Shown here in pieces: positions 24,877-57,700 of a DNA stretch of 63,812 bases. Source of the DNA: Candidatus Limnocylindrales bacterium. Lineage in GTDB: Bacteria > Acidobacteriota > Terriglobia > Acidiferrales > UBA7541. A model generated the notes under the pieces. It had not been told where the DNA came from and searched no databases. It saw only the letters and a list, made by a program, of their open reading frames with translations. Numbering within the stretch: position 1 is the first letter of the stretch; each line of letters opens with the position of its first letter. Location: the NCBI GenBank assembly GCA_035533415.1, contig DATLTU010000014.1, forward strand, positions 1-63,812, written 5' to 3'. The translations under genes and the position numbers were made by a program.

Positions 24877-24879
24877 ACG

Positions 24880-38631: not shown

Positions 38632-39515
38632 TGTCGGAAACAGTCTGGCACGAGGGGCGCTTTGGTTCGTCAAACGGCCCGCACCGCCTGCTCTTTGGGT
38701 GCATGTACGAAGATGCGGAGATTGAGCACGCGGCCTTCCACGGCAAAACCCGCGTGTTTTGCATCGCGTCTGCTGGCGCCACGGCGCTGCGCCTCGCCGA
38801 TGAGCACGAAGTGGTCGCTTGTGACATCAATCCAGCCCAGCTTGCCTACGCCGAGCGCCGCGCCGCCGGCGCCCCGCTCGAGACGGGTGATGCGGAGCGG
38901 GCGATGAATTTCGCGCGGGCTTTCATGCCGCTTATCGGCTGGCGGGCAGAAGTTGTACGCATCTTCCTTGCCCTCTCTGACGTCTCCGAACAGATGGTTT
39001 TCTGGACGAAGCATCTCAACACACTCCGCTTCCGCATGGGCTTCGACGCTCTGATGTCTCCTATGATCCTGCGCGCGGCGTATGCGCCGCGGTTCCTTTC
39101 CTTCCTGCCGCCAAAATTCGGAATGGTGCTCCGCAAGCGCCTGGAACGCGGCTTTGCCACGCATCCAAACGCCGCGAACCCTTACGCGCGGGCGCTCCTT
39201 CTGGGTGAAACAAACCGCGAGCCTCAGCCGAAAATACCTCGCATTCGCTTTGTCCTTGCCGACGCGGCTTCCTACTTGGAGTCGTGTGCTGCCGGCTCCT
39301 TCGATGCGTTCTCTCTCTCCAACATACTTGACGGCGCCGCACCCTCGTATCGCAATCGACTCTCGTGGGCCGTCCGTCGCGCCGCAACGGATGATGCTGT
39401 CGTCGTGCTGCGAAGTTTTGGAGAGCCACCGGCCGAACTGGCCACGAACTGTGCCGGATCGGAGCGCGCCATGCTTTGGGGAACCGTCGATGTGCGTAGC
39501 GCGCAGTCGTTCTGA
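38631..39515 (+). CDS. DUF3419 / BtaA-like SAM-dependent protein (short form)
   Basis: TGATG overlap with the DoxX stop. '[11 protein letters not shown]...[15 protein letters not shown]...[16 protein letters not shown]' mirrors the BtaA N-terminal 'WEDp..D...ItSaGCNaL...avDlNpaQ' pattern. Confidence 0.55.
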
Positions 39516-40182: not shown

Positions 40183-40607
40183 TCCCTTTGAGGCTGCCTT
40201 GTAAAAACGACCTGCAATGTCTGTTAACTATTAATATACGTATAGCTTAGGCATGATACACAAACCACTGATCCTCGGTGCCTCGGCGAAAAAAGTCCAG
40301 GTAGAGCCACGGTGGAGTCCGCGCTCCGCGTAGCCCGCCTCCCACGCCGTTTCCCGGCATCTCACTCACAAATCCCTAATCAACAATATGGAAAATTAAA
40401 ATCTCTGCCAAATCACACAAAATAAAGTGTCCAACGTTCTTCTAATCGCCAATTTTTTGCTGTTTTTTTGTTTCTCACCGTTATGGTTTCCCCACCCGTA
40501 GCCCCGTCCATTCGCCCTTGACACACGCCCCTGCCAGAACTATAAGCAGCTCGGAGGTTTGCCACGCACGGAAGGGGATTTCCGGGCGCAAATCGAAAAG
40601 AGGAATC

Positions 40608-41579
40608 ATGGATGACGCAACCGAAGTTGTTGGAATCGGCAGTTGCACGGTGGATTTCTTCGCCATTGTGCCGCGGCTGCTTGGTCCGGAGGAAAAAATC
40701 AACGCCGACCGCCTCGAAATTCACGCGGGCGGCGTCACGGCCAATAACCTGACGCAGGTCGCGCGGCTCGGCGCAAAATCCGGATGGCTTGGCTTGATCG
40801 GCGACGACGGCAACGGCCAAATCATTCAGCAGGCCTTCGCGGAAGATGGCATGGATTTGTCGGGGATCGAAGTCGTCAAAGGCGAGCTTTCGTCGATGAC
40901 CTGGATTCCCGTCGACGCCCACGGCGAACGCTGTATCTACATGTTCCCGAACGTAACCGGGAAAATTTCCGTGCATCAGGTGATGACGCGTTTTGCTCCG
41001 CATATCAAGAAAGCGAAGCATTTCCACACCGAAGCCTCGCAGCTTCCGCTGACGCCGCTGCGCGAGGCGATGCAAGTGGCGCATGAGGCAAATGTCCGTG
41101 TAGTTTTTGATTTGGATGTCGCACCGACTTTTTTCTGCCAGGCTAACTTGGGCACGCAAGAAGAATTGACCCTGGCGCTGAAATTGGTGGACGTCTTGAA
41201 GCCTTGTAAAGCGGCCGCGCTCGAATTTACCGGCGAAGACGATCACGAGCGCGCGGCGCGCAAGCTCCTCGAGATGGGACCCAAACTCGTGGCGATCACC
41301 ATGGGAGCGGACGGCTGCATGATCGCCAGCCGGGACAAAGTTGTCCACGTGCCGGGGTTCAGCGTCAAGGTTGTGGACACCACCGGCGCCGGCGATGCGT
41401 TCATGGGCGGACTGTCCTACGGGCTGCTGCGCGGGTGGGACCTCGAGCGCGTGGGGGCATTCGCCAATGCGTGCGCTGCGCTGTGCTGCACGAAAGTAGG
41501 GGCGCGCGCCATGTCCAAGCGCGACGACGTGATCGCCCTTCTCCGCGCGCAGCGTCCTGCCGCCGCTGCCGGACTCTGA
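40608..41579 (+). CDS. PfkB-family carbohydrate kinase
   Basis: Start trimmed to MDDATEVVGIGSCTVDFF. It carries the 'DTTGAGDAFMGG' PfkB signature 2. Confidence 0.85.
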   Translation: MDDATEVVGIGSCTVDFFAIVPRLLGPEEKINADRLEIHAGGVTANNLTQVARLGAKSGWLGLIGDDGNGQIIQQAFAEDGMDLSGIEVVKGELSSMTWIPVDAHGERCIYMFPNVTGKISVHQVMTRFAPHIKKAKHFHTEASQLPLTPLREAMQVAHEANVRVVFDLDVAPTFFCQANLGTQEELTLALKLVDVLKPCKAAALEFTGEDDHERAARKLLEMGPKLVAITMGADGCMIASRDKVVHVPGFSVKVVDTTGAGDAFMGGLSYGLLRGWDLERVGAFANACAALCCTKVGARAMSKRDDVIALLRAQRPAAAAGL

Positions 41580-41649
41580 TATCCCGTGTGACGTTCTTCG
41601 GCCCGCATGGCTGGGATTCAAAAACGATTCGAGAAAGGCAACGCGCGCG

Positions 41650-42633
41650 ATGTTTACGCCTCATAGTTTTCCGGCCGCGCTTTTCATGATGTTCACCAGC
41701 GCGATCTGCTGGGGCTCGTGGGCCAACACGTACAAAGGCGTGAAGAATTACCGCTTCGAACTCTTCTACTGGGACTATGCCATTGGCATTTTCCTGCTCT
41801 CGCTGATTCTCGCGTTCACCATGGGCAGCCTGCATGGCGGCCCGTCGAGCTTTCTGGTGAATTTGGAAACGGCCAGCCGCGGCAATATCATTTACGCGCT
41901 CATTGGCGGCGCGATCTTCAACCTCGCCAACCTGCTGCTCGTCGCGGGAATTGATATGGCCGGACTGGCCGTCGCGTTTCCCGTGTCCATTGGAATTGCG
42001 CTCGTCGTTGGCGTGGTGCTCAGTTACGTGTTGCAGCCGAGGGGAAACGCGGAATTGCTGGCGCTCGGTGTGGTCTTCGCGGTCGTCGCGGTAATTCTCG
42101 ATGGCAAATCGTATGCGGCGCTCGGCAGCGGCGGGCGAGTTGTTTCGCGCAAGAGCATCGTCGTGTGCGTCGTCTCCGGGATTTTGATGGGGCTGTGGGC
42201 GCCGTTTATGGCGCACGCGCTGACGGCGGGTGCCCCGCTGGGGCCGTACACGGCATCGGTATTTTTGACGCTGGGCGCGCTGCTTTCCTGCTTCGTTTTC
42301 AATGTGTATCTGATGCGCAGGCCGCTCGTTGGCGAGCCGGTGAAGATCGGCGGATTTTTTCGAGCGCCCGTGAGCGCGCATCTTCTCGGGCTTGCAGGAG
42401 GGTGCATCTGGGGGGTCGGGATGGTTTTCAATTTGGTAGCCGCGAATTTCACCGGCGTCGCGATTTCTTACGCCATCGGCCAATCCGCCCCGATGGTCGC
42501 GGCGCTTTGGGGAGTGTTAGCGTGGCACGAATTTCGCGGCGCAGGCAGCAAAGCGAAAACGTATCTGTCGCTGATGTTCCTGTTTTACATCTTTGCAATC
42601 GTAAGCATTGCCCTGGCCAATACGGCAGGCTGA
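41650..42633 (+). CDS. 10-TM sugar carrier of the DMT superfamily (GRP/RhaT-like)
   Basis: 327 aa. 'FTSAICWGSWANTYK' and the duplicated 5-TM layout support the call, as does its position downstream of a sugar kinase. Confidence 0.5.
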   Translation: MFTPHSFPAALFMMFTSAICWGSWANTYKGVKNYRFELFYWDYAIGIFLLSLILAFTMGSLHGGPSSFLVNLETASRGNIIYALIGGAIFNLANLLLVAGIDMAGLAVAFPVSIGIALVVGVVLSYVLQPRGNAELLALGVVFAVVAVILDGKSYAALGSGGRVVSRKSIVVCVVSGILMGLWAPFMAHALTAGAPLGPYTASVFLTLGALLSCFVFNVYLMRRPLVGEPVKIGGFFRAPVSAHLLGLAGGCIWGVGMVFNLVAANFTGVAISYAIGQSAPMVAALWGVLAWHEFRGAGSKAKTYLSLMFLFYIFAIVSIALANTAG

Positions 42634-42753: not shown

Positions 42754-45162
42754 ATGGATTCCCTGAGAACATTTCAACCTGAACCGGACCGCCGCGATGA
42801 CGGCGGGTTGGCGCAGCGCGCCGCGCGCCCGAAGGTGCGCCAGGATGTCACGTACTGGCGCGTCGAAGGGAGTCTGCTGAACCTCACCGCCGTGCGTCCC
42901 GTCGCGTTTTTCGCGTGGAACGCGCAAAGCTTCCTCGAACGCTGGACGCGCCGCGGCGCGATGTTCACGCTGGCGCTGGCACGGCCAGCGCTCTACCTGA
43001 GCAACCGCGCTTTCGCAACGCGCGTGCTGCACACCGTATTGCGCGGAGTGAGCTGCGACCGCCTGGACCTGCTGGGCGAGGAATATTTTCAGTATCTGCT
43101 AAAGCCCGCGCTCAAGCCGCGCGGCGTGGACGAATTGCAGAAAGCGCAGGCGCGAGGCGAGCACATTGCCCTGGTGAGCCAGGGACTCGACCACGTGATG
43201 CGCCCGCTGGCGCAGCATTTGGGCGTCGAATTCCTAATTTCCAATCGGCTGGAATTTCGCGACGGTCTGGCCACGGGCCGATTGCTCGATCCCGTGATTC
43301 GCCCGCGCGGCCCGCTGGCGCGGCTCATCGGCGGCAATCCGGACGGTAGCGTTCCGCGCGAACGGCTGGCGAAAAATCTGGGCGTCGCGGCGCATCCGGA
43401 AATTCTGCGCGACGCAATTCTCCCGGCCGCGCGGCCTTCGCCGCAGAATTATCTCCGCGTGGTGCATTTCCGCGCAGATGGCCGGCCGGGCGCAAAAATC
43501 GCCAGGCTTTCTGTTCGAGACTCCCTGCGCGGGAAGCAGATTCTGCTTGTGGGCGCGACGGGATTCATCGGCAAAGTCTGGCTGGCGAATCTGCTTTCCG
43601 ATGTGCCTGCGATCGGCAAAGTCTATGTTGTAGTGCGGAGCAGGCGCTCGATCAGCGCGGCGGAGCGTTTTCGCAAAGCCGTCGAATCACCCGTCTTCGA
43701 TCCACTGGCGCAGCGACACGGCTCTCAATTCGGCAAATTTCTCGCCGAGCGAATCGAAGTCCTCGATGGCGATTTGAGCAAACCGGGGCTCGGGTTGGAC
43801 GAAGCAACCCAGGCGCGACTCGCCCGAACGGTGGATCTGGTGATCAACAGCTCCGGCTTGACAGATTTCAACCCCGACCTGCGAGACGCGCTTGCCGCCA
43901 ACGTGGATTCCGCCGCTTATTTGCTCGATTTCATCCGGCAGTCGGATCATGCTGCGCTTTTACATCTCTCTACCTGCTACGTGGCCGGCGCGCGCGATGG
44001 GCGCATGACGGAAACGCTTACGCCGGATTACACGCCGGCTGGTATTTCCGATTTTGACGCGCAAAAAGAATGGGAGTCGCTGCGAACTTTAATTCGCGAT
44101 ACCGAAGCGCAAGCGGAAAGCGCCAAAGTGACGGACGAATTTCGCCGCGTCGCAATCGCAAAGCCTACCGCGGCGAAAACTTTAACTGGCACCGCGCTCG
44201 ACAATCAGATCCGCAAAAACCGCACGCGGTGGCTCCGGCAGGCGCTCACGGATGCGGGTACGCGCCGGGCGCGCGAGCTTGGCTGGCCGAACACGTACAC
44301 GCTAACGAAAAGCATCGCGGAGTCGCTGATCGTGAAGCATGGCGCCGGATTGCCGATCGCGATCGTGCGACCGTCGATCGTCGAATCGTCGCTCGAGAAA
44401 CCGTTTCGCGGCTGGAACGAAGGCATCAACACATCCGCTTCGCTTTCGTACTTGCTGGGAACATATTTTCGCCAGCTTCCCACGAACGAGCGCAAATGCC
44501 TGGACATCATTCCCGTGGACGTGGTGACACGAGGCATGACGCTGATCGCCGCGGCGCTCATCGAACGCAAACACGAATCGCTCTACCAGCTCGCCACATC
44601 GGTGACGAATCCGTGCAACATGCGGCGTTCGATCGAACTGACCAGCCTGGCGCACCGCAAGTTCTACCGCACGCAAAATGGCTTCGGGCACTGGCTGCGC
44701 TCGAGATTCGATGCGATTCCCGTTTCCAAGGCGCGTTACGACACGCTCTCGGCGCCGGCGCAGAAGGCCGTGGTGCAGGCGATCAATCGCGGCGTTTCCA
44801 GCGTGGGCTTCAATCGCTCGCTATTTGCCCGGCGCGAGCGGGAGCTCGAGCGCGTCATCAAACTCGTCCATCTTTTCGAACCGTTCATTTTGCATCACGA
44901 GCATACATTCGAAGCCATGAACATTGAACGGCTCATGGAAGCGCTTCCGCCCGAGGAGAAATCGGATTTCGGCTTTGATTGCCGGTCCATCGATTGGTGG
45001 GATTACTGGATCAATGTCCACATCCCGGCGCTGCGGAAGTGGTGCTATCCTCTCATCGAAGGCCGCCCGGTGGTGACGCGGAATCGCGAAGAAACGCCGC
45101 ACGCGGACGAGCCTGCCGTGGATGCCGCGGCCGGAAGAACGGCTACCGCGGCAACACCCTGA
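42754..45162 (+). CDS. Fusion protein: degenerate HAD-IB-like domain + fatty acyl-CoA/ACP reductase (NAD_binding_4 + sterile C-terminal domain)
   Basis: 802 aa. The N-terminal '[39 protein letters not shown]' is HAD-IB-like. The reductase part has '[19 protein letters not shown]...VYVVVRS', '[10 protein letters not shown]' and 'YTLTKSIAE' (YxxxK). Confidence 0.75.
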
Positions 45163-45174
45163 GACCGCGAACCC

Positions 45175-46323
45175 GTGGCCATTTTCGTTACCGGAGCAAC
45201 CGGCTATATCGGCGCGCACGTCGCCGCAAACCTGCTCGATGGGAGCGGCGAGCCGCTGAATTTGCTGGTGCGCGCAAAGAATGAGCAAGAGGCGCGCGAG
45301 CGGCTATGGCGCGCGCTGCAACTGCACATGGATTTCCCCCGTTTCCAGTCTTTCCTCGCATCGCACATTCAGATTTTCCGCGGCGACTTGACGGGCGCGA
45401 AATTCGGACTGGCCGAGGACGAGTACAGAAGCCTCGCGCGCACCACGGACTCTGTGATTCATTGCGCCGCGTCGCTCAATCGAAAGTCCGAAAAAGTCTG
45501 CATGAACGTGAACCTGCGCGGCACGTTGCAGGTGATCGAGCTGGCGATGCGCGCGCGCGACGATCATGGTTTGCGGCGATTCAGCCATGTCAGCACGGTC
45601 GCCGTCGCCGGGCATCGGCAAAACGAAATTGTTCAGGAGGATTCGGCGATTGAATGGGAACGCTCCGACTACGATCCATACGCGCGCACGAAGAAATTCA
45701 GCGAGCACATGGTCCACGAGCTTCTTCCCGACGTGTCGCGGACGATTTTCCGGCCCAGCATCGTGCTGGGCGATAGCCGCCGGCCGGAGACGAATCAGTT
45801 CGAGATGGTGAAGGCATTCGCGTTTTTGGCTGGACTGCCGGCACTGCCTTTTCGTCCCGCGGACCGCGTGGACATAGTGCCCGCCGACTATGTGGCCAGC
45901 GCGATTGCGACATTGCACCTGAAAGAGAATCCCGCGCATGAAATTTATCATTTATCTTCCGGAGGCGATTCCGAAACGTATTTGCAATTGACGCGTCCGC
46001 TAGCGGAAGCGCAGGGCAAGAGCGCGCCTGTTTTTCTGCCGTCGCTCGAGCGCTCCACGCAGGGGATGGTAAATGTTTTCTCGGGACGTTTCGGGAACGC
46101 GGGAAAACTGGCCACCCTGCTCAAAGTGTTTCTTCCTTATTTGACATGGAACACGGTATTCGACAATTCGCGCATCGTCGCGGAAATGGGACGCAAGCCA
46201 GCGCCATTCTCGCAGTATTGCTTTCCACTGCTGAAGTTCAGCCGTGACAATCACTTCGCCTATCCGTACGCAGACTGGCCGCGCGAAACCGCGCCGCCCG
46301 CTCCGCAGGAAATTCCGCGATGA
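45175..46323 (+). CDS. Stand-alone thioester-reductase-type SDR (terminal R domain)
   Basis: GTG start. Motifs: '[14 protein letters not shown]', 'VIHCAASLN', 'HVSTVAVAG', 'YARTKKFSE' (YxxxK), as in NRPS/PKS R domains. Confidence 0.7.
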
Positions 46324-47735
46324 TGGATCTATTTCTCGAAGCGTGGGTGGCGGGTTCCATCGAGCTTGCGAAACTTTCCTGGATGCTTGGCCGCGGCAAG
46401 AGCTGGCGGCCGGGAGAGAAACTGGGGTTGCTGTTCGCGTGCTATTGCGGCGCGCGCAACACCGGCTCGGATTTGCGCGTCGAGGAAATTGTGCGCCAGG
46501 TGCGGCGCGTGCTGGGCGATGAAAATATCGACCTCGCCGTGATGACGCAGAATTTCGATCTGACTCGCGGCTATTTCGCTGGAGCGCGCCAAGTGCGGCT
46601 GCCCGACGTGTTTCCTCCGTTTCTGAATCGTGAAGTGCCGCGGTATCACGGCGTAGTAGCGTGCGAAGGATCGATGTTCAAGAGCAAATTCGCGAATGCG
46701 CTCGCAACGATGATGATCGGATCGCTTGGATTGGCCTCGGCGCAGAACCGGCTTTCGATCGGGTATGGCGCGGAAGCGGGTTACATGGACCCGATCGTCG
46801 AAAAAATGTGCCGGCGCTACTGCAAGGATTCGGTCGTCATCACGCGAAGCGAAGAATCGCAAGCGCTGCTGGGCAAGCTGGGTATTTCGACGGAACTGGG
46901 CACGGACACGGCGTGGACGTTTGAGCCGCGCGGTCCGGAATACGGCGAAAAAGTATTGCGCGACGCGGGATGGGACGGCCGAACGCCTGTGCTGGTGGCG
47001 TGCCCGATCAATCCGTTCTGGTGGCCGGTGAAGGCGTCGATTGCAAAAGCCACCGTGCGAACGCTGACCGGCGCATACAAAGAAAGCCATTACCGCTCGA
47101 TTTATTTTCACAAGTCCGGGCGCCAAGTCGAGGCAGCGTATTCGCGATATATTTCCGCGTTTGCCGGGGCAATTGGCCGGTTTCGCAAGGAGCATCCCGT
47201 ATTTCTGGTCTGCGTGGGCATGGAGATGCTCGATCGAAATGCGTGCGAGCGGTTCGCGGCGCAACTCGGCGGCCGCGTGCCGGTGTTTTGCTCCGACGAA
47301 TATGACATGTACCAGATCGTGAGTATTTTGCGCGTGTGCCATTTGATGGCGTCGTCGCGCTATCACGCGATCGTCACGTCAATGCCCGCTGGCGTGCCGT
47401 CGCTGGGCGTCACAATGGACGAGCGCATCCGCAATTTGATGCGCCAGCGCGGACATAATCATTTGCTGCTGACTGTCGACGATCCGGAATTGGAAGCGAA
47501 GCTCTTCGATGCACTGGAGATGCTTTGCCGCGAGAAAGAAACCGTGCGCGAAGGAATCGGTCGCACGGTGGCGCAGAATCTACGGCTGATGTCGCGGATG
47601 GGCATGTACTTCGAGAAGTTTGTGGCGCAGCGCTATCCGGAGTTTCCGCTGCGGAGTGGCTGGCTCACCTGGGAGGAGTATTTGCCGCCGCTGAGACCGA
47701 ATCTCCAAAAGCTGATCGAGACCTACGGCGCATGA
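46320..47735 (+). CDS. Polysaccharide pyruvyl transferase family protein
   Basis: 471 aa, with a 4-nt overlap with the upstream stop. '[15 protein letters not shown]', '[13 protein letters not shown]' and '[20 protein letters not shown]' resemble the CsaB/WcaK-type PS_pyruv_trans fold. Confidence 0.55.
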
Positions 47736-49387
47736 ACTTCCTCGAGCGGATTTTCGTGCGCCTTGAGAAAGCGGGCGACGCGGCGGTACTGCAAGAAATC
47801 CGAGTGCCAGAAATCACCGGCGTCACGGCGAGCGAATTACTGGCGCTGATCGCGAAAGCGCGCGGGTTCGTTGCGGCGGCGGAGCTCAAGAAGGGAGCGC
47901 GGTGCGCGCTGCTCGCTCCGAACAGCATTCGCTGGGCCGCGCTCGATCTAGCGCTGATGGCTGAGGGCGTCATCGTTGTGCCGTTATACGCGCGCCAGGC
48001 CGCCGCGGAACTTGCCGTGATGGTGCGCGACAGCGGCGCGGCGCGAGTCTGCTGCGAAAGCGGGGAGCTGCGGGATGCGCTGCTTCATGCGCTCTCCGAA
48101 GCACCCGCGACTTCGCTCTTCGATGACGTGTTCGCCGCGCCGGCCGTGCCGGCTTCGCCGCCAAAAACGCTGCTCGATTCCGATCCCGTGACGATCATTT
48201 ACACTTCGGGAACTTCCGGCGAGCCGAAAGGCGTTGTGCTGACCGCCGCCAACATCAATCACATGCTCTTGTGTACCACGGCGCGCCTCGACGAATTAAT
48301 GGGGACGCGAAACACGCCGGAACAGGTATTCCACTGGACGCCGTTCAATTTTGCCGCATCGTGGATTTCGCTCTTGAGCTCTCTTTCACGAAATAGCGTG
48401 CTTTCGCTCTCGACGGACCTGACGAAACTTGCCGATGAAATGCGTACAGCGGCGCCGAATTATTTCTTGAATGTGCCGGCGCTGCTCGAACGCGTCCGAA
48501 CGAAGATCGAAGAGCAAATTCGCGGCCGCGGCGGATGGATCGCGGCGATGTTCCAGCGGGCGAGATCCGCTCACCTGCGGCGCGGAACCAACGAAGCAAA
48601 TCTCAGCGACGACATCTGGTTGGCGTTCGCGAATGCGCTGATCTTTCCGGCGATGCGCAAGGGAATCGGGCCGCGGTTGAATGCGCTGATTTGCGGGTCA
48701 GCACCGCTTTCCGTTGAGACACAGAAATTTTTCATGATGCTGGGCATTCCCGTTCTGCAAGCCTACGGCTTGACTGAAACGACGGCAATTTGCACGATGG
48801 ACGATCCGGCGTTCGTTGAGCCGGGTTACGTCGGTCCGGCAATCCCGGGAATCGAAATGAAGATTGGCGAAAACGAGGAAATCCTTGTGCGCGGGCCGAA
48901 TATCTTTTCGGGTTACTGGAACCGGCCGCAAGAAACAGCGGCGGCGCTTCGCGATGGCTGGTTTCATACCGGCGACCGTGGCGAAGTGAACGCGCGCGGC
49001 CACTGGAAAATCACGGGCCGAATTAAGAATTTGATTATTCTGAACTCCGGGCACAATATCGCGCCTGAGCCCATGGAAGATGAGCTGGCCAGCCTGCTGC
49101 CGCAAGCGCAGCAAGTGGCGCTGGTGGGCAACACGCGCAGCTATTTGGCGGCGATCGTGACCACCACGGCAAATTCCGGCCTAAGTGAGGCAGATGTTTC
49201 AGCGGCCATCGACAAAATGAATTCACATTTGCCGCATTACAAGCAAATTCGCGTCTTCCATCTTGAACGCCAGCCCTTCACAATCGAGAACGGATTGCTG
49301 ACGGCGATGGGCAAATTGAAGCGCGAAGCAATCACTGCGCACATGAAGAGCCAGATCGAAGAGCTCTATCGGAAACGGAACGCATGA
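47732..49387 (+). CDS. AMP-dependent long-chain acyl-CoA synthetase/ligase
   Basis: ATGA overlap at 47732-47735. Motifs: 'IIYTSGTSGEPKGVVLT', 'YGLTETT', 'GWFHTGDRG', 'GKLKR'. Confidence 0.85.
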   Translation: MNFLERIFVRLEKAGDAAVLQEIRVPEITGVTASELLALIAKARGFVAAAELKKGARCALLAPNSIRWAALDLALMAEGVIVVPLYARQAAAELAVMVRDSGAARVCCESGELRDALLHALSEAPATSLFDDVFAAPAVPASPPKTLLDSDPVTIIYTSGTSGEPKGVVLTAANINHMLLCTTARLDELMGTRNTPEQVFHWTPFNFAASWISLLSSLSRNSVLSLSTDLTKLADEMRTAAPNYFLNVPALLERVRTKIEEQIRGRGGWIAAMFQRARSAHLRRGTNEANLSDDIWLAFANALIFPAMRKGIGPRLNALICGSAPLSVETQKFFMMLGIPVLQAYGLTETTAICTMDDPAFVEPGYVGPAIPGIEMKIGENEEILVRGPNIFSGYWNRPQETAAALRDGWFHTGDRGEVNARGHWKITGRIKNLIILNSGHNIAPEPMEDELASLLPQAQQVALVGNTRSYLAAIVTTTANSGLSEADVSAAIDKMNSHLPHYKQIRVFHLERQPFTIENGLLTAMGKLKREAITAHMKSQIEELYRKRNA

Positions 49388-50187
49388 AGAGTGTCAAGGG
49401 CCAAACACTTTCCTGGGAATGCACGAACGCGGTGATTGAGCTGAAGCTGCATCGCGAGCCGTGCAACGAAATTGGGCTGGCGACGCTCGAGGAGCTCGAG
49501 AGCTTTGCGAGAGCTTTCGAATCCGAAGGCAAAGCCGCGGCCGCGTTGATTATTTACAGCAGCCTGCCCGCCGGATTCAGCGCGGGCGCTGATCTTCGCG
49601 AACTCCATCGCCGTTCGCAGCCGCTGCCCGCCGACGAAAGAATCGCCGGCGTCCGCGATTTTTTGCAGCGCATTCACGGGGTGCTCAATACAATTGACGC
49701 CGCGCCAGTGACGACGGTTGCGGCAGTGCATGGCGTCACGTTTGGCGGGGGCTTCGAGCTGGCGCTGGCGTGCGATTTGATCATCGCCGACAAAATGGCG
49801 CGCTTCTGCTTCCCGGAGCTGCGCCTCGGATTGATTCCCGGATTCGGCGGAATTCCGCGGCTGAAGCGCGACCTCGGCAATGGAGTGGTGCGCGACCTGT
49901 TGCTGACTGGCCGGAGCTTCGGCGCGGCGAAGGCGCAAACGATTGGACTTGTCAGCCAGGTGACTGCTGAAGGCGAGGCGTTGCGCGCGGCTCGGGCGAC
50001 CGCCGCGCAAATTCACAAATTCGACCGCGACACGGCGGTTGCCGCGAAACGTTTCATCAAGCCGGTTCCGTATGAAGACCTCCGACGTGAAATTGAGCTT
50101 TTCTGCGAGCTTTTCAACCGTCCCGCCGTGGAAGAGAGCTTGCGGAAATTCGTGGAAAGCAAGGATACAATGCCGTACTTGCCGTGA
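49384..50187 (+). CDS. Enoyl-CoA hydratase/isomerase (crotonase) family
   Basis: ATGA overlap. Motifs: 'FSAGADLRE', 'VHGVTFGGGFELALACDLIIA', 'PELRLGLIPGFGG'. Confidence 0.85.
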   Translation: MKSVKGQTLSWECTNAVIELKLHREPCNEIGLATLEELESFARAFESEGKAAAALIIYSSLPAGFSAGADLRELHRRSQPLPADERIAGVRDFLQRIHGVLNTIDAAPVTTVAAVHGVTFGGGFELALACDLIIADKMARFCFPELRLGLIPGFGGIPRLKRDLGNGVVRDLLLTGRSFGAAKAQTIGLVSQVTAEGEALRAARATAAQIHKFDRDTAVAAKRFIKPVPYEDLRREIELFCELFNRPAVEESLRKFVESKDTMPYLP

Positions 50188-50353
50188 TCGTTGGTTTCGG
50201 ATTCCCAACTTAGCGGCGGCGCGCGCAAATCGACGCGCTCACGCGCTGGGACGGCTGGCTTCATCAATGCCTGAAGTAAAAAGAAGCCGCGCGATATAAT
50301 GCGGAGGAGCGGCGCCCATTGCGCCGCACTGCATTGCGTTACAAAAGGGGCCT

Positions 50354-50596
50354 ATGCCATCGCTTGACGAAGTCACGGAGGAAGTTCTGCGGCTGGCGGC
50401 GAGCCATTCGAAGGTTCCGCGCGCGCAGCTTTCTCCCGACGATGATTTTTTTAAAATGCTGGGCATCGACAGCTTGCAGGCGCTCGATTTGCTGACACGA
50501 ATCGAGAATCATTTCAAGATTGAGCTGCCGGACTATGAACTCCAGGGCGTGAGCGATTTCCGCACGCTGGCCGCGCGCATCCAAGCGCGTTTGTGA
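50354..50596 (+). CDS. Acyl carrier protein
   Basis: 80 aa. '[16 protein letters not shown]' is the phosphopantetheine Ser motif. Confidence 0.8.
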
Positions 50597-52305
50597 TGCT
50601 GGATCTCCGCAAATATCCCTCGCTGGGCGCAGCCTTGCGCGCCGCGCTCGACCGCTGGCCCGATGACGTGTGCCTGATTGAGGCGGACCGCGAACGCGAG
50701 AATTGCCGCCTTACCTACCGGCAGTTCAAGGAGGCGGCGCTGCCGCTGGCGCGCGCACTGCAAGATTCGGGCTTCACCGCCGGGTCTCGCGCCGCGATCA
50801 TCATGACGAATCAGTGGAAGTGGTTGATTTCCGCCTACGCAATTCTTTATTGCGGCGGCGTGCTTGTGCCGCTCGATTACAAGCTGACCGCGCCTGAGCA
50901 TTTGCAGCTCCTCGCGCATTCCAAGGCCGATATTCTCATTGCCGAATATCATTTGTGGCGGCCCATCACACAAAGTGAAGGTTTTGCGAAGTCAGGGTTG
51001 AAAACAGCCATTGTCACCGAAGTGCCCGCCAACGCGGAGTTGCACGGCGCGAAGCGCTGGGAAGAGTTCCGCAAGACCGGCGATCCGGTATTTGTCGAGC
51101 GCGCACGAAACGACTGGGCGTCCATCGTTTATTCCTCGGGTACCGGCGGACGGCCCAAAGGTTGCGTGATGACGCACGGGAATTATCTGGAGCAGTGCGG
51201 TGCGCTCACATCGCTTTTCCCCTTCTGGCCCGGCGTGCGTTACCTGAGCATTCTTCCGACAAATCACGCGATCGATTTCATGATCGGCTTCATTGGGCCA
51301 TTTGTTTGCGGCGCCACCGTTGTGCATTTGCGGACGCTGCGTCCCGAATTCATCCGCGACGCGTTCACGCGCTACCACATCACGTATGTAACGCTTGTGC
51401 CCATGATTTTGAAAAGCCTCGAACGAGCCATGCGCCTGCGATTCGACGCACTGCCGGCGCCGCGCCGCCGCATGCTTGGCCGGCTCATCGCTTTGAATCG
51501 TGCATGCACCCGCCGCAGGCCGCATCTTCGGCTGAGTCGGTTGCTATTGGCGAATGTCCATCAAGCGTTCGGCGGACAATTAAGAGCTATTTTTGTTGGC
51601 GGCGCGTTTACCGAGCCCGCGACGCTCCAGTTTTTTTACGACCTCGGCATTCCAGTGGGGAACGGCTACGGACTGACGGAAGCCGGCACGGTGATCACGC
51701 TAAATGATTTCAAGCCGTTTCGCTCGGACACGGTCGGGAAGCCGCTGCCGGGGACGGAAGTGCGCATTATGAATCCTGATGCGGAAGGCGTGGGAGAAGT
51801 GGCCGCACGCAGCAAGACCATAATGTCGCACTACCTCGACGATTCGGAGATGACCGCCGCGACGATTGTGGATGGCTGGCTGATGACCGGTGATCTGGGC
51901 CGGATCGACGCGATGGGACATCTGCAGCTTTTCGGTCGCAGAAAAAACATGATCGTCACCGCGGGCGGAAAAAATATTTATCCCGAAGATATCGAGCGTG
52001 CGTTCGAGGGAATTTCCGTGAAGGAATTCTGCATCTTCGCGGCAAATTACGTCTGGCCGCAGCGCACGATGACTGGCGAGCAACTGGTTCTGGTGATGCG
52101 TTTCGACGACGCCGCGCAATTCGCCGATGTGCTGCGCTCACAAGTCGCCGAGCGGAATCGCCTCTTGCCGGATTTCAAGCGCGTCAGCGGTATGTTGGTT
52201 TGGAGGCGCGATTTTCCGCGCACGGCTTCGCTGAAAATCAAGCGCGACGTTTTGGCGGAAGAGATTCGTGGCTCCATGGATCGTTCCGCGATGGTTTCCG
52301 TGTAA
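50593..52305 (+). CDS. AMP-dependent acyl ligase (candidate acyl-ACP loading enzyme / FAAL-like)
   Basis: Its start overlaps the ACP stop (GTGATG). Motifs: '[18 protein letters not shown]', 'YGLTEAG', 'GWLMTGDLG', 'LKIKR'. Confidence 0.8.
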
Positions 52306-52315
52306 GGGAGTTTGC

Positions 52316-53236
52316 GTGAAGACCGGTTTTCTCGCGATTGTGAATCCTGCGGCGGGCGGCGGGCGCTGCGAAAAGCTCGCACCCGCGGCGCTCGATCGCG
52401 TACGGTCCGCGGGCGTTGCAATCGATGTTGCGGAGACTCACGCCGCAGGCCATGCGGTGGAGCTGGTGCGCGAGGCGCAAAAGCTGGGCTATCGAAATTT
52501 TCTCGCCGTTGGCGGCGACGGCACATCGTACGAAATCGTGAACGGCATTTTCCCTTTGCCCAGCGACGGCGCGGGCGACCGCCGCACGCTTGCCTTTTTA
52601 CCTTTGGGAACCGGGAATTCCTTTCTGCGCGATTTTCGCGATCATCGCCAGGCGGAGGATGTCGGCACTGTGGCAAACGCTATCGTGAACGGCAAGCGCA
52701 GCCCGTGCGATGTCATTCGCCTGAAACATGCCGAGGGCGAACTGCATTACATCAATTTACTGACGCTGGGTTTTGCCGCGGATGTAGCGGACATCACGAA
52801 TCGCCACTTCAAGCGCTGGGGCGAGCTCGGCTACATTCTAGGCGTACTGACGTGCCTCGCGCGCCTGGACCGCCGCGCGTTTCCATTGCGCGCTGATGGC
52901 GCCGCGGAATTCGACCGGCGTCGCTGCTTGTTTCTTGCCTTCAACAACAGCAAATTCACGGGCGGCAAAATGATGATCGCTCCCAACGCCGATTCGAGCG
53001 ACGGTTTGATTGAATATGTTCGCTGGGGGCCGATTGGACGCATCGGATTGCTTTGCAATCTTCACACGCTTTTTGACGGAACGCACATCGAGCATCCGCT
53101 TGCTTCGCGGGCGGCGGTACGCGAAATTGAATTTTCACTTGATGCGCCAGTGACGGTGATGATCGACGGCGAAAGTCTGCACCTGCAATGCGAGCATCTG
53201 GACGTGCTTCCGGGCGCACTGGACATTCTGGCATGA
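52316..53236 (+). CDS. Diacylglycerol-kinase-like lipid kinase (DAGK_cat / YegS family)
   Basis: GTG 52316 has AAGGGAG 6 nt upstream. Motifs: 'FLAIVNPAAGGGR', 'LAVGGDGTSYEIVNG'. Confidence 0.8.
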   Translation: MKTGFLAIVNPAAGGGRCEKLAPAALDRVRSAGVAIDVAETHAAGHAVELVREAQKLGYRNFLAVGGDGTSYEIVNGIFPLPSDGAGDRRTLAFLPLGTGNSFLRDFRDHRQAEDVGTVANAIVNGKRSPCDVIRLKHAEGELHYINLLTLGFAADVADITNRHFKRWGELGYILGVLTCLARLDRRAFPLRADGAAEFDRRRCLFLAFNNSKFTGGKMMIAPNADSSDGLIEYVRWGPIGRIGLLCNLHTLFDGTHIEHPLASRAAVREIEFSLDAPVTVMIDGESLHLQCEHLDVLPGALDILA

Positions 53237-53991
53237 AATCCGTTTACCTGAAAGTGCGCGCTGCCTTACTGTGGGCCGTGAGCGGCCTGCATTTTTTCGT
53301 GCTGTGCTCGCTGCTCGTCGCGCTGGGAATGGTGATCGATCCGCGGAAGAACGACCGCCCGCAGCGCATTTTCTTTCGCAACATTCTGCGGCTTGCCGGA
53401 GTGAAATTCGAAGTGCGCCGCTCGCCGGGTTTTGATCCCGCGCGCACCAGCCTGTTTGTGTGCAACCACGTAAACCTTTTTGACCCGTTCGTCATCTACT
53501 CCGCGATTCCGCAATTCGTGCGCGGCTTTGAGCTGGCGTCGCATTTCAAAATTCCTGCCTACGGATGGATGATGGGGCGCTTTGGAAACGTGCCTGTGCC
53601 CGGCGAAGACGATCGCAGCCGCGCCAGCCTGGAGGAAATGGTGCGCCGGGCGAAGCAGTCGTTCGATTCAGGAACGAGTCTGATCGCGTTCGCGGAAGGC
53701 TCGCGGACGCGCGACGGGCGCATGAAACCTTTTCAGAAAGGGGTCTTCCGGCTGGCGATCAAGTTCGGCGTGCCGATCGTGCCGATGAGCATCGTCGGCT
53801 CTTATGATTTTCATCGCACGGGCGACTGGATGCTCTATCCCGGGAAAATTACCGTCTATTTACACGACACGATTGAGACGATGGGGATGCCGAAGGAACA
53901 GGTGGAAGAGTTGAGGGATCGCGTCCACGCCATTGTTTCGGCGCCACTCGACGAGCACGTCGCGCGTCCGGCCGGAACAAAAAACGGCTAG
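53233..53991 (+). CDS. plsC: 1-acyl-sn-glycerol-3-phosphate acyltransferase family (PlsC/AGPAT)
   Basis: ATGA overlap. Motifs: 'CNHVNLFD' (HxxxxD), 'FAEGSRT', 'VPIVPMS'. Confidence 0.85.
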   Translation: MKSVYLKVRAALLWAVSGLHFFVLCSLLVALGMVIDPRKNDRPQRIFFRNILRLAGVKFEVRRSPGFDPARTSLFVCNHVNLFDPFVIYSAIPQFVRGFELASHFKIPAYGWMMGRFGNVPVPGEDDRSRASLEEMVRRAKQSFDSGTSLIAFAEGSRTRDGRMKPFQKGVFRLAIKFGVPIVPMSIVGSYDFHRTGDWMLYPGKITVYLHDTIETMGMPKEQVEELRDRVHAIVSAPLDEHVARPAGTKNG

Positions 53992-54629
53992 AACGATTCG
54001 CGGCTGCCGGGGATCAATCGCCCGGCGCGAATTTCCTGCCAAGTGTAAACCACGCGATGGATTACCGTCAGCGTCGACAGCGTGGCAATCACCCACAGCA
54101 CGGGTGCCATGCGCCGAAACGCGCCGCCCAGAATCAGCAAGACCAGCCGCTCGGGCCGTTCCAAAAAACCGACTTTGCACAAAGGGATCAGCGACTCGGC
54201 GCGCGCGCGCGCGTAGCTGACCATAAACGAACTGGCCATGGCGACCGCCGCAAGCCCCATGTAAAAAGGCCGGCCGATCAGCGTGTAATAAACAACCAGC
54301 CCCATATACAGGCCAAGATCGGAATAGCGGTCAAGCGTGGAATCGAGGAACGCGCCAAACGCGGTCACGCGGCCTGCGCGCCGCGCCACCTGGCCATCGG
54401 CCATATCGAGAAAACCGGCCAGGAAAAGCACCGCAGCCGCGCCGCGAAATTCGCCATACGCAAATAGCACCGCAGCCCAGACGTTCACCACCATGCCAAT
54501 CACGGTCAGCACGTTGGGCGTGATGCGTGTTGCGGCCAGGGCGCTGACGACATGGCGAAGCAGCCAGCCACCCCCGGAGCCAATCCAATGCGTGGCCGGC
54601 TTCCAAATAGGTTCTTTAGCGTTTGCCAT
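53988..54629 (-). CDS. CDP-alcohol phosphatidyltransferase family protein
   Basis: 'FLDMADGQVARRAGRVTAFGAFLDSTLDRYSD' is D-x2-DG-x2-AR-x8-G-x3-D-x3-D. It is convergent with plsC, with a 4-nt overlap. Start trimmed to MANAKEP. Confidence 0.85.
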   Translation of the reverse strand: MANAKEPIWKPATHWIGSGGGWLLRHVVSALAATRITPNVLTVIGMVVNVWAAVLFAYGEFRGAAAVLFLAGFLDMADGQVARRAGRVTAFGAFLDSTLDRYSDLGLYMGLVVYYTLIGRPFYMGLAAVAMASSFMVSYARARAESLIPLCKVGFLERPERLVLLILGGAFRRMAPVLWVIATLSTLTVIHRVVYTWQEIRAGRLIPGSRESF

Positions 54630-54759
54630 CTGGTTCGAAATGATACGACAGGCGCGGCGCTGCCTCAAGGAGTGGAGGAAAATTGTCCGAAGAAAAAGAG
54701 CCGCGCAACGAAGAAGAGATTTGCGCGGCCCTTGGCTGCCGAATCAAATGCTGCGTGAA

Positions 54760-57700
54760 CTATTTTGAAGCACTTTCGCCAGCGTCTCCGCTTGGTGAAG
54801 ATACGGAGATCGCCGGAACATCCTCGCTGCGAACCTTTTTATTGAAATCGGCGAGGTCTTTGTCTTTGAGCTGCCGATACGTTGCCAGTTGCGTGTCGAG
54901 CTGCTTGCTTAACAGATCAAATACGACACGTGACGACTGCGTTGGCGCCGTGTCTGCGCTTTCCACCGTTCCATCGAGAGCCATCAACTGATCCGCGATC
55001 ATGATCGGGAAATTGAGCGGGTCCTCGCCGCTCTTCGACTTGACCTGAATCAGCGCGTCCTCGACGGCCGTAAATTTCTTGTCAAGATCCTTCGCCTCAT
55101 CGGCCGTGGCCTTCGATTTCGGATTTCCGGCAAGCCGCTTTTCGAGCGCGGTGAGTTGTCCATGAATCTCGCGAATCTGATTCACCGTGTCATGGGCCTG
55201 CGTGATGCGGTCGCGAATTTGCAGGCTGAAATCAAGCTGCTTCTGTAAATCCGCAGCGGAGACTTGAATGCGCGGATCTTCGTCGAGTTTCAACGGCTCC
55301 GTGTAGCTTGTTCCCGCCACGGTCAACTTCACCTGATAGTTTCCCGGGACAGCGAGCGGGCCAACGGGCCTTCCTCCCCAAGAAACAGCTCCCGGCACGA
55401 TGCTGGGCGGCGCATACCGCAAATCCCATGCGAACCGGTTCAGTCCCGCCTTCGCGGGCAGCTTTGCCGGTTCGCCGCCGAAGAATGAAAACCCGCCCGG
55501 CCGTGCAGCGGCCTTCTTCTTGCTGGAATATTTCCGGATTACTTTCCCCTTGGCATCCAAAATCTCGAGGGTGATGGGATCTTTCGGCGCAGTGCTCAGC
55601 GAATAATCGATCACGGCTCCCGAAGGCGGATTTTCACCGGCCGCGAAGCCGGGAGGAATCCGGAAATGTCCGCCGCCGAAACGATATGCTGTTTCGGGCT
55701 TGAACAAATACGCGGCGGCGCTGGTATCGGTTGAATTCATCTGACGCAGCGGCGTGATGTCGTCGAGGCTCCAGAACGCGCGGCCATGCGTGGCGACGAT
55801 CAAATCGTTTCCGTGAATGGTCATGTCGTGAACGGGCACGGTCGGCAAATTCAACTGGAGCGATTGCCATTGCGCGCCGTCGTCGAATGAAACATAAATT
55901 CCGGTTTCCGTGCCGGCGAAGAGCAAGCCTTTGCGCTTAATATCCTCGCGAATCACATGGGTGAAGACGTTATCCGGAAGCCCGTTGGTGATTTTCGTCC
56001 ACGTCTTGCCATAGTCGTTTGTCTTGTAAAGATAAGGATGGTAATCATCCCAGCGGCTGCGATCGGCCGCGAGATATGCCGTGCCCGCAGCGTGCGGTGA
56101 AGGCTCGATGGTGTCGATGCGGCTCCAGCCGGGCAGATTCTTTGGAGTCACGTCGGACCACGACTTCCCGCCGTTGCGTGTCAGGTGAACCAGCCCATCG
56201 TCGCTTCCGACCCAGATCAATCCGCGCGCGAGCGGAGATTCCGCGACGGCGAAAATCGTGTCGTAATATTCGACGCTGGTGTTGTCCTGCGTGATCGGGC
56301 CGCCCGAGGAAACTTGTTTGCTTTTGTCGTTGCGCGTCAGGTCCGGACTGATGACCGTCCAATTCTGGCCCTGGTCGGTACTTTTGAAGAGCACCTGCGC
56401 GCCATGATAAATCGTGTTCGAATCGAATGGCGACATCATGATCGGAGCGGTCCACTGGAAGCGGTATTTCAGGGTCGCCGGGGCCCATCCCATGGGATTA
56501 AGCGGCCACGCGCTGATGTCCTGCTCCTGGCCGTCGGCCTTGTCGTAACGCGTGATCAGGCCATCGTACGAACCGGCGTAAACGATATTTGGATTTTTGG
56601 GATTGGGCACCACGAAGCCGCTTTCGCCGCCGCCCACGTCATACCAATCCTTGTCGATGATGGCGCCAGAGTCGCTGCGGCTGGCAATGGCGACGGTGGA
56701 ATTGTCCTGTTGTGCGCCATAGATGTAGTAATTGAATCGGTCATCCGTCGCGACATGATAAAACTCGGCAGTCGGCTGATTATTCTCCGTACTCCAGGTT
56801 CGTCCGTTATCTTCCGAAATCGTCGCGCCGCCGTCATCGGCTTCGATCATACGAGACGTATCCGTGGGATCGATCCACAGGTCGTGACGATCGCCATGCG
56901 GCGCGGGGATGGTTTGGAATGTCTTGCCGCCATCGGTCGAGCGGTACATTCCCGTATTCAAAATATAGAGCGTGTCGGTGTTCTTGGGATCCGTGTAAAT
57001 GTTCGTGAAGTACCAGGCGCGCTGGCGGAAGCGATGATCGCCCGTGACGAAATGCCACGAGGCGCCCGCATCGTCTGAGCGGTAGAGCCCGCCCTTTTTG
57101 GCTTCGATCAACGCGTACACGCGCTCCTGGTCCGCGCCCACGGCGATTCCGATGCGTCCAAGCACTCCGTCCGGCAGCCCGTGGCCTTTGAGTTGTTTCC
57201 ACGTCGTGCCGCCGTCCACGGATTTATAAATGCCGCTGCCGGGTCCGCCGCTCGTGAAACCCCACGGCGTGCGCAGCTCCTGATACATGGCGGCGTAGAG
57301 CACATGCGAATTTTGCACTGCGAATGTCAGGTCGACCGCGCCTGTCTTGTCGTCCTTGTAAAGAACTTTCTGCCACGTCTTACCGGCATCCGTCGAACGG
57401 AACACGCCACGCTCGGCATTGGGTCCGCAAGCGTGGCCGATCGCCGCCACGAAAATAATATTGGGATCGTGCGGGTCGATCAGAATTTTGGCGATGTGGC
57501 GCGTATCATCCAGGCCGATATGCGTCCACGTCGCTCCGCCATCGACGGACTTGTACATGCCGTCGCCGTAGGAGATATCGCCTCGGAGCGCTTCTTCGCC
57601 GGTGCCGACGTAAATTACGTTCGGGTCTTGCGGGTCCACGGCAATCGCGCCGATGGAGGAAACCGCCTGGTGCTGGAAGAGCGGCTTCCACGTCAAGCCG

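Follow-up and report, generated by a model that had tools for sequence, protein, structure and literature searches.

Glycerol dialkyl glycerol tetraethers of the branched kind (brGDGTs) and other ether lipids of bacteria are in wide use as palaeoclimate proxies, and the pathway that forms the ether bond in aerobic Acidobacteria is still unknown; Ger/PlsA has been found so far only in anaerobes or facultative anaerobes (PMC13159169, PMC10087280, PMC13274423). The elb genes of Myxococcus xanthus encode, according to an account summarising Lorenzen et al. 2014, two members of the NAD-dependent epimerase family (ElbA and ElbE), a HAD protein (ElbB), a protein of unknown function (ElbC) and ElbD (UniProt Q1DC43), in which a reductase, an acyl coenzyme A (CoA) synthetase, an acyl carrier protein (ACP) and a 1-acylglycerol-3-phosphate acyltransferase (AGPAT) are united in one protein (PMC9131029). 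Among Acidobacteria, elb has been reported only in some members of subdivision 4 (SD4), and S. usitatus is without ElbD (PMC13159169, PMC11868695). Sponge symbionts of Acidobacteriota subdivision 6 (SD6) and Poribacteria have Elb-like clusters, including variants in which elbD is split between its reductase and A domains, and their ether lipids are only predicted (PMC9426513; 10.64898/2026.06.23.733905). Here we describe a ten-gene lipid cassette in a 63,812-nucleotide (nt) window, by which we mean the whole stretch of DNA analysed, contig DATLTU010000014.1 (GCA_035533415.1) of Candidatus Limnocylindrales bacterium (GTDB Acidobacteriota; Terriglobia; Acidiferrales; UBA7541). This two-module cassette would build an ether-linked glycerophospholipid precursor from a fatty alcohol, making its own three-carbon backbone, and might give aerobic bacteria a new route to ether-type membrane lipids.

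The ten genes were numbered G1 to G10 in window order, with G1-G9 on the plus strand and G10 on the minus strand. They encode a HAD-like domain fused to a fatty acyl reductase (FAR; G1), a thioester reductase (TR; G2), a protein of the pyruvyl-transferase superfamily (G3), an acyl-CoA ligase (G4), a crotonase (G5), an ACP (G6), a second ligase (G7), a lipid kinase (G8), a PlsC-type acyltransferase (G9) and a convergent CDP-alcohol phosphatidyltransferase (G10). Domains were called with Pfam and NCBIfam profiles, and junctions were read directly off the nucleotide sequence. All ten open reading frames (ORFs) are present at the coordinates of Table 1, the nine co-directional genes spanning 42754-53991. 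An earlier note on this DNA (the original prediction) had already listed nine co-directional genes with these domains, which the ORFs and both sets of profiles bear out. It had also claimed six tight junctions. Five of them are indeed start/stop overlaps: ATGA joins G2 to G3, G3 to G4, G4 to G5 and G8 to G9 (at 46320, 47732, 49384 and 53233), and the G6/G7 junction reads GTGATG at 50593/50596. The gap between G1 and G2, however, is 12 nt (45163-45174) rather than 13. The convergent overlap of G9 and G10 proved to be 4 nt long (CTAG, 53988-53991), just as had been noted. The start of G8 is ambiguous, since a GTG at 52268 gives a 38-nt overlap with G7 and a GTG at 52316 a 10-nt gap. Scans of the cluster gave no Rfam match and no convincing promoter or terminator.

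We then asked how far the arrangement is conserved, using G3 as the marker because it is the most distinctive gene of the cassette. More than 7,800 homologues of G3 were found below 1e-5 in a 90%-clustered protein collection, and the best 120 were 68-100% identical to it. The window itself is from a soil or peat-type metagenome contig (JGI), and the names borne by the nearest G3 homologues assign its organism to 'Candidatus Acidiferrales/Acidoferrales' (Acidobacteriota, Terriglobia). A scan of the GTDB species-representative genomes gave at least 594 G3 loci. The best 80, which were examined further, all came from metagenome-assembled genomes (MAGs), nearly all of them labelled Acidobacteriota (Acidiferrales, Terriglobales including Acidobacteriaceae, and Blastocatellia), and identity of G3 across acidobacterial classes was 64-90%. 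Colinearity was examined by tblastn of all window proteins against related loci, and was counted in the 57 loci that had sufficient flank. G1-G8 were present, colinear and co-oriented in 53 of these (Terriglobia and Blastocatellia, 50-85% identity); the four exceptions were Blastocatellia loci stretched by insertions. As these eight genes share one order and one strand at 53 of 57 loci, the arrangement is far beyond chance. G9 directly followed G8 in 38 of 50 acidobacterial loci and G10 was found in 33 of the 50, while the flanking genes varied from locus to locus (FG-GAP/TPR proteins, CoA-transferases, an esterase, VKOR). The variable flanks and the partial presence of G9 and G10 thus define G1-G8 (or G1-G9) as the conserved unit, with G10 as a lineage-specific addition. 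The best 80 loci were all from MAGs, a second search that started from an Acidobacteriaceae ortholog likewise yielded MAGs and metagenomes but no cultured carrier, and tblastn against plasmids gave no match.

The cassette is not confined to Acidobacteriota. The G3 family comprised 844 clusters below 1e-3 among 50%-identity representatives, and a profile of its distant members retrieved proteins labelled Myxococcota, Nannocystaceae, Bdellovibrionota and Schlesneria. Five cassettes were found outside the phylum: in a Myxococcota MAG, on a contig whose G3 protein bears the name Nannocystaceae at NCBI, in a Bdellovibrionota MAG (L085, whose contig begins at the TR gene), in a MAG labelled Pseudomonadota and on one further metagenome contig. 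Their gene order is HAD, FAR, TR, G3, ligase with AMP-binding_C_3, enoyl-CoA hydratase (ECH), ACP, ligase and DAGK, often followed by PlsC; G9 adjoins G8 in L085, L086 and the P0384 contig, and G10 is missing from all five. In one copy (L088) no ACP gene was called between ECH and the second ligase, and there is no room for one. A gene for a TetR-family regulator lies directly 3' of PlsC in two of these copies (L085:8656-9282 and the P0384 contig), which suggests that in those two lineages the cassette is regulated rather than constitutive. Given this colinear conservation across classes and phyla, we conclude that the cassette genes work together.

Solitary G3 paralogues were observed as well (loci L083:10001-14652 and L084:1489-5880). 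One adjoins PEP carboxylase in Schlesneria paludicola, and the second adjoins a luciferase-like oxidoreductase and a thiamine pyrophosphate-dependent enzyme in a Pyrinomonadaceae MAG. The G3 family thus has more than one gene context, and both solitary contexts are near C3 or keto-acid enzymes.

The spacing of the genes in relatives, for which intergenic distances are extrapolated values, was tight at G1/G2, G4/G5 (median -4 nt), G7/G8 and G8/G9 (median -4 nt). The only loose junction was G5/G6, where the median gap was 57 nt and 19 of 63 loci had a gap wider than 300 nt. This junction houses a gene for a 702-amino-acid (aa) prolyl oligopeptidase (S9) in the closest relatives, L002 and L004 (L002:8451-10559), and a gene for FabH (3-ketoacyl-ACP synthase III) in Blastocatellia (L019:16703-17704). 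Moreover, G3 and a G4-like ligase form one 967-aa protein in P0181, with both parts at full length, and the C terminus of FAR (P0128) or of TR (P0230) is fused to G3, although both of the latter cases are possibly gene-call artefacts. Gene spacing and fusions thus divide the cassette into module I (pseudo-HAD/FAR, TR, G3, ligase G4 and hydratase G5) and module II (ACP, ligase G7, kinase and PlsC).

Table 1. Coordinates, strand, profile matches (E values) and assignment of the cassette genes, and of stand-alone HAD genes in loci of other phyla.
Feature	Position	Strand	Profile matches	Assignment
G1	42754-45162	+	HAD 1.1e-14; NAD_binding_4 (PF07993) 2.7e-54; Sterile (PF03015) 2.8e-12	Degenerate HAD-like domain (about residues 30-230) fused to alcohol-forming FAR
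G2	45175-46323	+	NAD_binding_4 1e-45; TIGR01746 1.1e-38	Stand-alone TR, SDR-type R domain
G3	46320-47735	+	PS_pyruv_trans PF04230 6e-6; CsaB 1.9e-13	Divergent member of the phosphoenolpyruvate-dependent pyruvyl-transferase superfamily, GT-B-like fold
G4	47732-49387	+	AMP-binding; AMP-binding_C_3	ANL-family acyl-CoA ligase, FadD11-like
G5	49384-50187	+	ECH_1 1.4e-40	Crotonase-fold enoyl-CoA hydratase
Spacer	50188-50353			166 nt between G5 and G6, sole loose junction of the cassette
G6	50354-50596	+	PP-binding 2.8e-13	ACP
G7	50596-52305	+	AMP-binding 1.7e-68	Second ANL-family ligase, start overlaps the ACP stop
G8	52268-53236	+	DAGK_cat 1.1e-24; YegS_C 1.2e-24	Soluble lipid kinase, DAGK/YegS/sphingosine-kinase family
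G9	53233-53991	+	Acyltransferase PF01553 3.7e-19	Membrane-anchored PlsC/AGPAT-family acyltransferase
G10	53988-54629 (ATG 54629) or 53988-54668 (TTG)	-	CDP-OH_P_transf PF01066 2.2e-16	Convergent CDP-alcohol phosphatidyltransferase, PIP-synthase-like
Stand-alone HAD genes	L082:6450-7130; L086:6463-7137; L088:3728-4408			

At the centre of module I stands G3. An AlphaFold2 model of the protein (predicted local distance difference test score 79.5, predicted TM-score 0.78) had as its top Foldseek matches in the PDB GT-B enzymes exclusively (probability 1.00, TM-scores of about 0.5-0.6), which points to a two-domain GT-B-like fold. Sequence searches of the PDB with G3 profiles gave no meaningful match. 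A profile of distant G3 relatives was then aligned by hhalign to Escherichia coli K-12 WcaK (probability 96.6%, E 5.7e-10). This alignment brought out the EGSxF motif of G3, Arg176 ("TR..ES" versus RESVS in WcaK), GTDTAW (versus GVDTAW) and SSRYHA (versus GTRLHS), the last containing R347-x-H349. These residues of the site for phosphoenolpyruvate (PEP) vary little or not at all among distant members of the family, and for CsaB and Pvg1p it has been demonstrated or modelled that the equivalent Arg and His bind PEP (PMC10435577). By its sequence, G3 is thus a divergent member of the pyruvyl-transferase superfamily that retains the Arg and R-x-H motifs of the PEP site. No glycosyltransferase, flippase or polymerase gene was seen in any cassette locus examined, the neighbours being lipid genes, and pyruvylation of a polysaccharide was rejected because a polysaccharide gene context is absent.

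G1 has a Rossmann motif (GATGFIG at 267), a catalytic YTLTK at 515 and a Sterile C-terminal domain, as expected of a FAR, and among solved proteins it is closest to a fatty acyl-CoA reductase (7eoz, 1.4e-44). G2, which contains GATGYIG and YARTK, has as its best solved relative MxaA (1.7e-23), a terminal reductase that converts a thioester to a primary alcohol in a four-electron reaction. For the N-terminal domain of G1 (window 42835-43440), the HAD family match of the original prediction stands, but the nucleophile Asp has been lost in every ortholog examined. There is no DxDxT. Motif I, placed by pattern and position (HMMER aligned only the cap and motif II-IV region), reads WRVEGSL, with an invariant Arg in place of the Asp. 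The sequence R-x-E-G is invariant at this position in all orthologues examined, as WRVEGSL in Acidobacteriota and, where other phyla have a stand-alone protein, as FRAEG or VRVEG. Motif IV is degenerate, while an alignment with HAD-IB proteins of the SerB type is still obtained for the cap and motif II regions, so that the domain has neither the motif I Asp nor the acidic motif IV of a subfamily IB phosphatase of the HAD superfamily. It appears to be a conserved pseudo-phosphatase without obvious role. Since the HAD protein is encoded by a separate gene (224-248 aa) in the four non-acidobacterial copies with a visible upstream end, the acidobacterial G1 is a fusion of HAD and FAR.

G4, which shares ATGA overlaps with both G3 and G5, carries the P-loop TSGTSGEPKG and the C-terminal Lys; indeed, G4 and G7 are both intact ANL ligases in their P-loops and C-terminal lysines. 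In an alignment to EchA8 of Mycobacterium tuberculosis, G5 has both catalytic glutamates (in GGGFELA and FPELRLG) and the oxyanion-hole sequence FSAGADL, as expected of a hydratase, and these motifs are identical in four other phylum-level copies, including those of Myxococcota and Bdellovibrionota. In module II, G6 has the DSL serine motif at residue 39. G7 is likely an acyl-ACP synthetase, a role in ACP loading that its adjacency to G6 alone suggests. G8 contains GGDG and has YegS, SphK1 and DgkB as solved relatives. G9 has an N-terminal hydrophobic segment and the HX4D motif in the form HVNLFD, and it also matches the acyltransferase part of Aas (3.8e-14). On the strength of this match, module II looks like a kinase together with an Aas-like acylation unit.

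G10 contains the full CDP-alcohol motif D(x)2DG(x)2AR...G(x)3D(x)3D. Its best NCBIfam match was archaetidylinositol-phosphate synthase (2.4e-45; 154.7 bits, below the cut-off of 180), followed by phosphatidylinositol-phosphate (PIP) synthase (1.3e-36; 126.1 bits, below the cut-off of 170). A head-group step had been foreseen in the original prediction; the transferase for it is present and PIP-synthase-like, but belongs to this lineage and not to the five copies in other phyla. The scan for an inositol-1-phosphate synthase domain, which took in 40 of the larger window ORFs but not several of 180-340 aa, gave no match.

Tentatively, and well short of confidence, we favour a scheme in which a fatty alcohol and PEP would give an enolpyruvyl ether, which would be activated with CoA, hydrated and reduced to an alkylglycerol, and then phosphorylated and acylated. 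The FAR of G1 would convert a fatty acyl thioester to a fatty alcohol. G3 would move the enolpyruvyl group of PEP onto this alcohol to yield a 2-alkoxyacrylate, and the ether bond would be formed at this step. Ligase G4 would turn the carboxylate into a CoA thioester, formally a 2-enoyl-CoA, which hydration by the crotonase G5 would convert to 2-O-alkyl-glyceroyl-CoA. The MxaA-like G2 would then reduce the thioester to an alcohol, yielding an alkylglycerol whose free primary alcohol would be phosphorylated by kinase G8. PlsC (G9) would acylate the remaining hydroxyl with acyl-ACP supplied by G7 and G6, the Aas-like unit. In this lineage, the PIP-synthase-like G10 would add an inositol-phosphate-type head group after CDP activation by a housekeeping CdsA.

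This PEP scheme is the simplest that uses each enzyme once. There is no acyl-CoA dehydrogenase or desaturase in the cassette to supply an enoyl substrate; since an intact and conserved hydratase is nevertheless present, a PEP-derived acrylate would provide its substrate. Moreover, the hydratase is translationally coupled to the ligase, and the ligase is coupled, and elsewhere fused, to the PEP-type transferase. A lipid kinase within the cassette likewise suggests that the backbone hydroxyl is made unphosphorylated.

Several observations weigh against this scheme. The PF04230 match of G3 is weak (26.8 bits, with a cut-off of 25.3). To our knowledge, no pyruvyl transferase uses a lipid alcohol as acceptor or stops at an enolpyruvyl ether. 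The model predicts an sn-2 (2-O-alkyl) ether, whereas the monoethers reported from Acidobacteria and myxobacteria are 1-O-alkyl. The M. xanthus lipids, too, are given as 1-alkyl structures (PMC9131029). In addition, the roles of the two ligases, and the substrates of the two reductases, could be swapped without contradiction, and the model finds no use for the conserved pseudo-HAD domain. It seems unlikely to us that the cassette is a full, hitherto unknown oxygen-independent ether-lipid route, in which enolpyruvyl transfer from PEP to a fatty alcohol is followed by construction of the backbone in place (CoA activation, hydration, four-electron reduction) instead of from glycerol-3-phosphate or dihydroxyacetone phosphate (DHAP), and which would be the missing ether chemistry of aerobic Acidobacteria and possibly a source of brGDGT-type sn-2 ethers.

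The main rival of the PEP scheme is a dissociated and expanded Elb-type pathway, which we regard as possible but rather doubtful. G7 and G6 would load a fatty acid, G1 and/or G2 would reduce it to an aldehyde or alcohol, and a step without an assigned gene would join the product to a glycerol- or DHAP-derived backbone, as in M. xanthus ElbD; G8-G10 would finish a 1-O-alkyl phospholipid, and G3-G5 would be accessory enzymes, for example for tailoring or for a special acyl chain. Such a pathway predicts the 1-O-alkyl ethers that have been reported. The four ElbD domain types are all present, together with an ElbB-like HAD-family domain and an ElbE-like NAD-dependent reductase (PMC9131029), and split-elbD clusters with neighbouring diacylglycerol kinase, acyltransferase and CDP-alcohol transferase genes are described from sponge Acidobacteriota and Poribacteria (10.64898/2026.06.23.733905). 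The original prediction had likewise recognised the four ElbD activities (reductase, adenylating ligase, ACP and AGPAT-type acyltransferase) as separate genes, and the domains agree with it. The likeness of the cassette to ElbD extends to the domain types but not to the ElbD polypeptide itself, since no ORF in 42.7-54.7 kb combines them. Similarly, the fatty-alcohol-derived polar lipid that it proposed is reasonable, but G3, G4 and G5 were given no role, even though they are conserved wherever the cassette is found. These three genes are as strictly conserved as the Elb-like ones, are translationally coupled and are fused elsewhere, which is hard to square with an accessory role. Nor does the order of loading an acid on ACP and then reducing it, common to the original prediction and the Elb-type pathway, fit the spacing, which sets ACP and G7 apart from the reductases and joins them to the kinase and PlsC, in the manner of an Aas-type acylation unit; and L088 is without the ACP gene that such loading would use. 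Finally, the reported elb genes are restricted to some SD4 Acidobacteria (PMC13159169, PMC11868695), whereas the cassette is widespread in Terriglobia too. An equivalence of G3 with ElbC, for which the description gives no function (PMC9131029), was considered but not shown, no Myxococcus protein being among the G3 relatives listed. The matches listed by the homology searches were all close relatives of the queries, with no M. xanthus Elb protein among them.

It is less likely still that the product is no ether lipid at all. The hydratase, the two thioester reductases, the kinase and the acyltransferase could make and process a long-chain diol: G4 and G5 would yield a 3-hydroxyacyl-CoA, which would become an alkane-1,3-diol and, once phosphorylated and acylated, a glycerol-free diol phospholipid. 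The source of the enoyl-CoA is, however, not in the cassette, and G3 and the FAR would be left without a role. The product could also be a lipid or glycolipid whose head group is modified by G3 with a pyruvate ketal or a carboxyethyl group, in keeping with the fact that every pyruvyl transferase characterised so far forms a ketal on a diol (PMC10435577, PMC6801904). In that case the ligase-hydratase pair, coupled or fused to G3, would have no substrate to act on, since no enoyl system exists in a ketal. In either form, the absence of glycosyltransferase, flippase and sugar-nucleotide genes from the cassette speaks against it. Salvage or remodelling, in which exogenous fatty acids, alcohols or lysolipids would be re-activated by the two ligases and ACP, reduced or hydrated, and re-inserted through the kinase and PlsC under TetR control, we consider improbable. 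It would account for the TetR gene 3' of PlsC in two of the non-acidobacterial copies; ligases of the ACSL type, ECH and a diacylglycerol/monoacylglycerol-type kinase are typical of lipid turnover, and G9 is similar to the acyltransferase of Aas, which re-acylates lysophospholipids. Yet enzymes of degradation or salvage do not include two NAD(P)H-dependent thioester reductases and a PEP-type transferase, no dehydrogenase or thiolase is found in the cassette, and the conservation of G3 (64-90%) together with the fixed gene order argues for a dedicated biosynthetic product. A sphingolipid or ceramide pathway was rejected, there being no serine palmitoyltransferase. A role in making a fatty-alcohol-derived polar lipid remains the most reasonable general reading.

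Genes next to the cassette were also considered as members. A PfkB-family sugar kinase and a ureide-permease/sugar-transporter-like membrane protein are encoded directly upstream of G1 (40518-42633) and are kept there only in the closest Acidiferrales relatives (L002-L009); they are probably outside the cassette. Downstream, 54760-61380 on the minus strand encodes two tandem proteins of 1086 and 1114 aa with Sortilin/Vps10 and BNR repeats, and several Acidiferrales loci (L007, L012, L041, L068, L072) have a d1-like protein downstream of G10. Both the upstream pair and the BNR/Sortilin proteins were rejected as members, being conserved in close relatives only. About 3 kb upstream of the cassette, 37583-39515 holds three small genes, for a Polyketide_cyc2/START-like protein, a DoxX-family membrane protein, and a protein with both DUF3419 and a methyltransferase domain, an arrangement seen only on the identical contig L001. 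DUF3419 is the family of BtaA-type betaine-lipid synthases, and this may be a second lipid-related locus.

Elsewhere in the window, 32139-36654 is a multihaem cytochrome locus with a 318-aa protein (paired CXXCH, MtrC/MtrF-like domain), an 818-aa protein without Pfam match (33096-35552) and a NapC/NirT-type cytochrome; it may be an extracellular electron-transfer system, which would be notable for Acidiferrales. Glucan phosphorylase (with DUF3417), phosphoketolase (XFP) and acetate kinase are encoded in a row at 19785-26085 and make up a phosphoketolase route from storage glucan to acetate. The region 2582-13186 is ordinary, with P-type ATPases (2582-4927 and 5358-7268) and, on the minus strand, an RND efflux system of AcrB-like (7414-10617), HlyD-like (10614-12101) and OEP (11789-13186) proteins. 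A 456-aa ORF at 17491-18861 had no Pfam match at E <= 1e-5.

As a candidate for aerobic ether-lipid synthesis, the cassette is concrete, widespread and amenable to experiment. If the PEP scheme is true, both a new way of forming the ether bond and a new origin of the glycerolipid backbone would follow; if the Elb-like model is true, there is a fully dissociated form of the ElbD system, which is then far commoner than thought. Whichever model holds, G3 is a highly conserved and specific marker for the screening of genomes and metagenomes. A literature search for this gene combination found no publication describing the cassette.

Compared by domain type only, the cassette and the elb genes share a FAR-like reductase, an adenylating ligase, an ACP, a PlsC-type acyltransferase, a HAD-family domain and an extra NAD-dependent reductase; the PF12710 HAD domain in G1 and the PF01370/PF07993 reductase G2 correspond to ElbB and to ElbE/ElbA by domain family alone. 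In contrast to elb, the cassette has no multidomain ElbD, its domains being on the separate genes G1, G4/G7, G6 and G9, and the HAD domain is fused to a reductase. It also has four extra conserved genes, for the pyruvyl-transferase-family protein, a second ligase, the crotonase and the lipid kinase, and, unlike elb, it is common in Terriglobia. The reports on sponge symbionts offer the nearest published description, with dissociated Elb activities beside a kinase, an acyltransferase and a CDP-alcohol transferase. The sponge clusters, however, are defined by an ElbD homologue that keeps A-ACP-AT on one protein, and the accessible text and supplement mention no pyruvyl-transferase or crotonase genes.

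The eukaryotic peroxisomal pathway (FAR1/2, GNPAT, AGPS and acyl/alkyl-DHAP reductase) and the AGPS route of M. xanthus (MXAN_1676) resemble the cassette in that a Sterile-type FAR supplies the alcohol of the ether chain and in their acyltransferase and reductase steps. Unlike them, the cassette has no FAD-dependent AGPS homologue, and its kinase suggests a backbone that is unphosphorylated when the ether forms; no domain of an FAD-linked alkyl-DHAP synthase or of a PlsA/Ger-type reductase was found in the ten cluster proteins. As in the chemistry of MurA and MurB, an enolpyruvyl group would be transferred from PEP to a hydroxyl and the product then processed, although MurA has a fold different from that of G3. 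The ketal pyruvyl transferases CsaB, WcaK and Pvg1p belong to the same superfamily as G3, which keeps their Arg and R-x-H motifs. In contrast to both of these systems, the acceptor would be a lipid alcohol and not a sugar, and the product would be hydrated and reduced instead of closing to a cyclic ketal or being reduced to a lactyl ether. Module II is comparable to E. coli Aas, an acyl-ACP synthetase/2-acyl-GPE acyltransferase, in its use of a ligase, an ACP and an acyltransferase as one acylation unit, except that here the ligase and the acyltransferase are separate proteins. In the ceramide cluster of Caulobacter (ACP, acyl-ACP synthetase, reductase and DAGK-type ceramide kinase), a DAGK-family kinase likewise acts on a lipid alcohol other than a glycerophosphate; the cassette, having no serine palmitoyltransferase, is not a sphingolipid pathway. 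Taken together, these comparisons place the cassette with the Elb-type fatty-alcohol/ether-lipid clusters, and we consider it an improbable, though not far-fetched, outcome that its chemistry is categorically new.

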